Positions 2,627 through 3,378 of a DNA stretch of 64,000 bases are shown here, piece by piece. Numbering within the stretch: position 1 is the stretch's first letter; every line of letters begins with the position of its first letter. Where the stretch lies: the sequence record PQ533662.1. One strand, written 5' to 3'. The notes below the pieces were generated by a model. It was given only the letters and a program-made list of their open reading frames with translations, was not told the origin of the DNA and did not search any database. The DNA is from Pseudomonas phage Presto. Made by a program: the position numbers and the translations under genes.

Positions 2627-2646
2627 TGGGCCACTTTCGGACAAGC

Positions 2647-2690
2647 GGCACATTGTGCCTATTGCGTATTAGGCACAATGTGCCTAATCT
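2647..2690 (+). promoter_or_regulatory. acr promoter with two inverted-repeat operators (putative Aca1 binding sites)
   Basis: GGCACATTGTGCC at 2647-2659 and its reverse complement inside AGGCACAATGTGCCT at 2671-2685. A sigma70-like -35 TTGCGT (2662-2667) and -10 TAATCT (2685-2690) flank a 17-bp spacer occupied by the second repeat. RBS AAGGA precedes the ATG at 2738. Confidence 0.65.
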
Positions 2691-2737
2691 AACGTCATGC
2701 CAACCACAACGGCGAGGCGCAAACAAGGATAGACACC

Positions 2738-3160
2738 ATGAGCAGCACGATTTCAGACCGCATCATCTCCCGCTCGGTTATTGAAGCGGCTCGATTCATT
2801 CAGTCCTGGGAAGATGCGGACCCCGACAACCTGACTGAAAGCCAGGTTCTGGCCGCTTCTAGTTTCGCCGCCAGGCTCCATGAGGGGTTCCAGGCTACCG
2901 TCCTGCAACGACTCGTGGACGACTCCAATCATGAAGAGTATCGCGAGTTCAAGGCGTGGGAAGAGGCGCTACTCAACGCAGATGGACGAGTCGCGAGCAA
3001 CCCATTTGCCGATTGGGGGTGGTGGTATCGCATCGCCAACGTGATGCTTGCCACTGCCTCGCAGAACATAGGCGTCGCCTGGGGAAGCCACGTACATGGT
3101 CGTTTAATGGCTATTTTTCAGGACAGGTTCCAACAGCATTATGAGGATGAGGAATGCTGA
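2738..3160 (+). CDS. Candidate anti-CRISPR protein (AcrIF3-like by size and context, 140 aa), low-GC moron in the G/I slot
   Basis: About 52 % GC against a ~64 % background. Sits between the G-like and protease/scaffold genes, where JBD/D3112-type phages keep acr genes. Directly followed (overlapping) by an aca1-like HTH gene and preceded by inverted-repeat operators. Identity to AcrIF3 is from memory of its ~139-aa length and context, not verified. Confidence 0.6.
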   Translation: MSSTISDRIISRSVIEAARFIQSWEDADPDNLTESQVLAASSFAARLHEGFQATVLQRLVDDSNHEEYREFKAWEEALLNADGRVASNPFADWGWWYRIANVMLATASQNIGVAWGSHVHGRLMAIFQDRFQQHYEDEEC

Positions 3161-3378
3161 AGCCTGACGCCTCCAACCACAATCCAGACCCGCGCTACCT
3201 GCGCGGGCTGCTCAAGAAAGCCGGCATCAGCCAGCGGCGCGCAGCCGAGCTGCTCGGCCTTGGTGACAGGGTGATGCGCTATTACTTGAGCGAGGACGTC
3301 AAGGAGGGCTACCGCCCCGCGCCGTATACCGTCCAGTTCGCCCTGGAGTGCCTTGCGAACGACCCGCCATCTGCGTGA
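3154..3378 (+). CDS. aca1: Anti-CRISPR-associated HTH repressor Aca1-like (74 aa)
   Basis: Small HTH protein (ISQRRAAELLGL...RYYLSEDVKEGYRPAPYTVQFALECL) translationally coupled to the upstream moron. This is the characteristic partner of acr genes in Mu-like Pseudomonas phages. Confidence 0.7.
   Translation: MLKPDASNHNPDPRYLRGLLKKAGISQRRAAELLGLGDRVMRYYLSEDVKEGYRPAPYTVQFALECLANDPPSA

Follow-up and report, generated by a model that had tools for sequence, protein, structure and literature searches.

The anti-CRISPR region of Mu-like Pseudomonas phages was placed by Pawluk et al. 2014 (PMC3993853) in the slot between the head genes G and I, and AcrIF3 together with Aca1 is among the anti-CRISPR families that were described first. 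AcrF3 forms an all-helical homodimer, in which one subunit sits on the HD domain and linker of Cas3 and the other on the C-terminal domain (CTD); the dimer covers the DNA entry cleft and stops recruitment to the Csy-dsDNA complex, thereby blocking interference and, indirectly, primed adaptation (PMC5113301, PMC5859409, PMC6538845). Evidence of activity in the literature concerns the AcrIF3 proteins of JBD5 and JBD88a only. The JBD88a protein (gp33, YP_007392440.1) is the functionally assayed reference AcrIF3 according to a review (PMC6538845), and phage JBD88a serves as the acrIF3 phage in PA14 plaquing assays (bioRxiv 10.1101/279141). Its partner Aca1 acts as a rigid HTH dimer, which introduces a bend of about 42 degrees into the inverted repeat IR2. 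Repression is exerted through IR2, and IR1 is a competitor for Aca1 (PMC8633003).

Compared with these systems, the locus found near the left end of the window (the whole 64-kb stretch of DNA that was analysed) is almost certainly, as judged from its sequence, an acrIF3-aca1 operon of the canonical kind, carried by a transposable Pseudomonas aeruginosa phage of the JBD93 type. No observation spoke against this identification. The operon is already known, being the same as in the sequenced and named phage JBD93, and it therefore carries little weight as a discovery. Its elements are as follows.

2643-2663, no strand assigned: predicted Aca1 operator IR1 (AAGCGGCACATTGTGCCTATT), differing from the published JBD30 IR1 at a single central base
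2662-2690, + strand: tentative core promoter, with -35 TTGCGT at 2662-2667, a 17-nt spacer and -10 TAATCT at 2685-2690
2668-2688, no strand assigned: predicted Aca1 operator IR2 (ATTAGGCACAATGTGCCTAAT), 21/21 bases matching the published IR2
2725-2729, + strand: Shine-Dalgarno-like AAGGA, 8 nt 5' of the acrIF3 ATG, read from the sequence
2738-3160, + strand: acrIF3, ATG start, 140 aa, predicted inhibitor of the type I-F Cas2/3 nuclease-helicase
3154-3378, + strand: aca1, ATG start, 74 aa, predicted HTH repressor of the acr promoter
3379-3597, no strand assigned: conserved non-coding spacer of 219 nt between aca1 and gene I

Both ORFs had been foreseen at exactly these positions and with these lengths, and the start of 2640 originally proposed for the locus is a few bases short of 2643, where the first operator repeat begins.

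From 2100 to 3700 the window is 100% nucleotide-identical to JBD93 (KU199709.1 / NC_030918.1, gp33-gp34, 18007-18647) and likewise to vB_Pae_U4. JBD93 shows the same gene order, G - acrIF3 - aca1 - I, and the locus is without any difference, compared with 97.1% identity for the whole prophage part. In the RefSeq record of JBD93, gp33 is named 'anti-CRISPR protein AcrF3' and gp34 'hypothetical protein'. JBD88a gp33 and JBD5 gp35 belong to the same family, with 140 and 139 aa, respectively, versus 140 aa here, and are also located directly upstream of aca1. [quoted passage not shown] This fits the use of JBD93a in the literature as a phage without activity against the I-E system (PMC5727412). 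The Aca1 of JBD30 (YP_007392343; 7C0G, 7FA3, 7VJM) is likewise encoded at the 3' end of its acr operon, but JBD30 pairs aca1 with acrIF1, whereas the window pairs it with acrIF3.

The original prediction also assigned the operon to the G/I slot of a Mu-like phage, and the neighbouring genes bear this out on both sides.

1-21351, + strand: right-hand ~21 kb of a JBD93-like, Mu-like (Casadabanvirus) prophage, 97.1% identical to JBD93 15270-36628 of 36629
873-2159, + strand: Mu F-like gene (PF04233)
2159-2626, + strand: Mu G-like virion morphogenesis gene, left slot boundary (PF05069, E 4e-26), corresponding to JBD93 gp32
3598-4695, + strand: Mu I-like protease/scaffold gene, right slot boundary (PF10123, E 7e-104)
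4699-5613, + strand: Mu T-like major head gene (PF10124)

The order of the head module is thus F-G-[slot]-I-T, which is of the Mu type. The window begins inside the Mu-like phage, and the left ~15 kb of the prophage lie beyond it. Behind the major head gene, a small gene (ORF 5680-6120, + strand; JBD93 gp38, 'hypothetical protein') contains a 99-nt tandem repeat at 5730-5918 (1.9 copies, 87% match), which encodes a Pro/Thr/Ala/Lys-rich repeat.

The identity of the acrIF3 product, claimed at first as AcrIF3-like, is supported by sequence comparison. It hits Pfam PF21401 (Cas3 inhibitor AcrF3) with 286.3 bits against a cut-off of 27 (E 4e-86), with its residues 4-132 covering positions 1-129/129 of the model, and it matches the PDB entries 5GQH, 5GNF and 5B7I of AcrF3 over residues 1-138 (E 5e-81); an NCBIfam search returned no match for this protein. 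Identity amounts to 95% with JBD88a gp33 and to 87% with the crystallised JBD5 gp35. From the latter value, which holds over 138 aa to a 1.5 Å structure, the product would be expected to adopt the all-alpha six-helix fold and to form a homodimer. A three-way alignment of these proteins shows Trp93 and Tyr97 to be invariant, which are AcrF3 contacts to the Cas3 C-terminal domain (PMC6538845).

The gene could still be imagined as a relative of acrIF3 that has decayed or been repurposed and has lost the inhibition of Cas2/3, as its product carries 7 substitutions relative to the JBD88a reference and 18 relative to the crystallised JBD5 protein, and the published assays concern these other variants. 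We find this scarcely credible, however. The ORF is full-length and the whole Pfam model is matched, both Trp93 and Tyr97 are kept, and a much more distant homolog, at a reported 43% identity, retained activity (PMC3993853). Moreover, the identical protein is present in the viable phages JBD93, vB_Pae_U4, PfII40a and Komp_PA14_H, and its exact sequence occurs under the AcrF3 name on at least 998 public contigs, complete 7-Mb chromosomes among them. A further, improbable reading takes the 7 substitutions that separate it from the reference AcrIF3 as an adaptation to a variant Cas2/3. We thus retain the reading of an intact acrIF3 gene, whose product is presumably active in this particular host as well.

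Regarding base composition, the gene had been credited with a GC content of about 52%. The dip is real, but it is smaller than that, since acrIF3 has 55.6% GC (GC3 0.63) compared with 64.5% (GC3 about 0.8) in the remaining prophage. The intergenic region upstream of acrIF3 has 52.3% GC, and aca1, at 64.9% GC (GC3 0.83), is phage-typical and not low.

The aca1 gene overlaps acrIF3 by 7 nt (ATGCTGA, 3154-3160), and a GAGGA stands 6 nt 5' of its ATG. Both features fit a translational coupling of aca1 to acrIF3, as had been proposed. The aca1 product has no match in Pfam (E<=0.01) or NCBIfam, so its identification as Aca1 rests on pairwise sequence matches to the PDB entries 7C0G, 7FA3, 7VJM and 7VJN (E 9e-44). 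It shares 94% identity over 72 aa with the crystallised JBD30 Aca1 and 97% with JBD88a gp34, and the Aca1 peptide given in the original prediction agrees with the translation. JBD30 Aca1 has 79 aa versus 74 aa for the protein in the window, whose N-terminus is cut short by an in-frame TGA just 5' of the ATG. The DNA-contacting residues of Aca1 were reported as R22, S31, Q32, R33, S42, R44, V45, R47, Y48, Y49 and R59 (Liu et al. 2021, PMC8633003), and all of them are retained here except Ser42, which is replaced by Gly (G37 in the window protein). Among them, Arg44, Arg47, Tyr48 and Arg59 serve in DNA recognition, and Arg22, Ser31, Gln32, Ser42 and Tyr49 contact the backbone. The same S42G exchange was reported by name for the D3112 and JBD93 homologs of Aca1, and the S42G protein bound IR2 with a Kd of 59 nM, compared with 74 nM for the wild type (PMC8633003). 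The exact Aca1 sequence is as common as that of AcrIF3 (at least 998 contigs), where an annotation gap becomes apparent: in the JBD93 RefSeq record and on most of these contigs, Aca1 is called 'hypothetical protein' or 'winged helix-turn-helix'.

A repressor of this type should find its operators in the promoter of its own operon, and Aca1 inverted repeats with the half-site GGCAC are indeed present there. IR2 is the same DNA as the IR2 used in the ITC and co-crystal experiments with Aca1, and IR1 is invariant across the seven aligned phage promoters. The core GGCACNNNGTGCC occurs at just two sites in 64 kb, one in IR1 and one in IR2. In an alignment of the intergenic regions between G and the acr genes from the window and from JBD88a, JBD24, JBD26, JBD5, JD024 and Zilla (seven phages), an 85-nt block with both repeats is nearly invariant, and the 3' ends of G and the first acr genes vary around it; this block was found in 123 phage records. 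The tentative promoter is placed inside the block, with its spacer filled by IR2, which overlaps the -10 element. Its -35 and -10 positions were read off the sequence and should be regarded as tentative, the hexamers being weak matches, and a sigma-70 consensus scan of 2400-3700 called no site. A -10 at 2685-2690 would put the transcription start near 2697.

As the last gene of the acr operon, aca1 is followed by the 219 nt of non-coding DNA and then by gene I. The + strand of this non-coding stretch showed no terminator-like site, and an Rfam search over 2300-3900 at E<=1 yielded no match. In an account attributed to Stanley et al. 2019, repression of the strong acr promoter is said to be needed, as unchecked transcription reportedly enters the downstream head genes; the missing terminator-like site is in keeping with such read-through. 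The spacer also harbours a tandem ACCCCGTTAGA (2 x 11 nt) at 3457-3478, and JBD93 annotates in it a 41-aa antisense ORF (gp35), which is probably spurious.

Our own basis consists of sequence identities, operators, contact residues and gene context, and the mechanisms of binding and repression are those of the literature. Upon infection, the acr promoter would fire and give rise to one transcript for AcrIF3 and Aca1, with translation of aca1 probably coupled to that of acrIF3 via the ATGCTGA overlap. The AcrIF3 homodimer would then clamp Cas2/3 and cover the DNA entry cleft between its HD, linker and C-terminal domains, which would keep Cas2/3 from being recruited to the Csy (Cascade)-R-loop complex, so that type I-F interference and primed spacer acquisition would both be blocked. 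As Aca1 builds up, its dimer is expected to bind IR2 in the core promoter and to turn the operon off, with IR1 as a competing Aca1 site that may tune the repression. In a lysogen, low-level expression may hold the I-F system off, thus allowing a prophage with targeted protospacers to persist, and the same lysogen would become vulnerable to those other phages against which its I-F spacers are directed. On this last point the original prediction, by which the lysogen would be protected against superinfection-targeting spacers, has the direction the wrong way round. Acr made from a prophage disables the CRISPR-Cas system of its host, and Acr lysogens lose their CRISPR immunity to other phages; CRISPR-sensitive phages then plaque on them (PMC3993853).

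Beyond the prophage, the window contains very little host DNA and the genome of a second, lambda-like phage.

21352-21722, - strand: fragment of an MFS transporter gene, the only host DNA, 370 nt, residues ~306-429 of 448
21722-34841, + strand: tail and lysis arm of the lambda-like phage
34798-34841, no strand assigned: attP-type junction of the lambda-like phage, the 3' part of a tRNA followed by the integrase arm; the whole tRNA is found in CP007399
34895-51963, + strand: early arm of the lambda-like phage, with integrase, C5 methylase, S24 repressor, Prim-Pol and two holins
51958-64000, - strand: terS-terL-portal-ClpP-capsid-TMP5' block, in the opposite orientation to the other blocks

The last base of JBD93-like DNA is 21351, the counterpart of base 36628 among the 36629 in JBD93, and this end of the Mu-like prophage cuts the MFS gene about 61 nt before its stop. 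The stub is 96.5% identical in nucleotides and 100% in protein to P. paraeruginosa ATCC 9027. We considered whether its Pfam match to MFS was an antisense artefact of the tape-measure gene, and this was ruled out by the 370 nt with 96.5% identity to a conserved Pseudomonas MFS gene. At 21722 an abrupt join leads from the stub into the lambda-like phage, in the 3' part of its tape-measure gene. The complete phage genome of ~42 kb (21722-64000; markers gpA terminase, Phage_portal_2, ClpP and capsid E) is permuted and partly inverted compared with the intact prophages in CP007399 and CP171900; the blocks were compared with intact copies in the complete chromosomes CP007399, CP171900, CP029148 and CP086064. 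A tape-measure segment of 86-89 nt is present at both joins in inverted orientation (21722-21810 on the + strand and 51958-52047 on the - strand, 96.7% identity), with microhomology of only about 1-6 nt to the other partner at each of them. The breakpoint of the early arm falls between a 245-aa gene and terS, and the end of the window maps to the same place to within about 25 nt.

Several further features of the lambda-like phage were noted along the way. The 3' part of the tRNA (reverse strand, ...GGGTTCGATTCCCTTCGCCCGCTCCA) represents the att core of this phage at 34798-34841, and ARAGORN detected no complete tRNA anywhere in the window. The + strand at 22611-29783 is occupied by three or four large, high-GC3 ORFs (1183, 335, ~290 and ~590-620 aa), which matched nothing in Pfam, NCBIfam or PADLOC. 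A defence island had been considered at 22.6-29.8 kb on account of three large ORFs there, and it was ruled out, as in other genomes these are tail genes behind the lambda-like tape-measure gene; from this position, the ORFs are distal tail / host-specificity genes. An SRAP (SOS-response-associated peptidase) gene is found near the right end of the phage (32726-33415, - strand), and the early arm encodes a 717-aa protein (38411-40564, - strand) whose C-terminal part is a C5 cytosine methylase domain.

The way in which these pieces are joined raises the question of whether the surroundings of the operon are an assembly chimera, or DNA of a replicating or induced phage, and not a simple chromosomal prophage. 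The JBD93-like end, the 370 nt of host MFS gene and the abrupt join into the middle of another phage's tape-measure gene speak for it, as do the attP-type end-to-start junction of the second phage, its terS-to-TMP block inverted relative to intact copies, and four junction-specific ORF products, which have no match in the public protein index. On the other hand, a Mu-like end against a host gene is the expected look of a transposed prophage, and real inversions between two prophage copies do occur; on balance we consider such an origin unlikely. That the JBD93-like prophage, the MFS stub and the permuted lambda-like genome together form a genuine chromosomal product, for example of transposable-phage or inter-prophage recombination, seems to us distinctly improbable. 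Since the arrangement may be either a chimera or a real rearrangement, the terms 'lysogen' and 'own CRISPR-Cas system', which the original prediction had used, are not assessable from the window. The verdict on the operon is the same under either origin: it remains that of a JBD93-type acrIF3-aca1 operon.

A related question concerns the host in which this operon would act. The type I-F repeat (GTTCACTGCCGTRTAGGCAGCTAAGAAA), searched with up to 3 mismatches, had 0 matches in the 64-kb window, the tandem-repeat finder showed no CRISPR array in it, and no cas gene was present among the window ORFs scanned, nor did Pfam and PADLOC reveal anything CRISPR-related among the flank ORFs. Among P. aeruginosa isolates, the share with a type I-F system lies between a minority and about one half. 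Both points would suit a source host devoid of a type I-F system, and we regard the chances of this as roughly even. Nevertheless, the host DNA in the window comprises about 370 nt only, so absence from the window carries no weight for the rest of the genome.

The acrIF3-aca1 operon of this JBD93-type phage is recognisable from the sequence alone. In most records aca1 is still a 'hypothetical protein', and it lacks a Pfam or NCBIfam match. Some practical value of the finding lies in the hint that a type I-F system, should the source strain possess one, is probably silenced.
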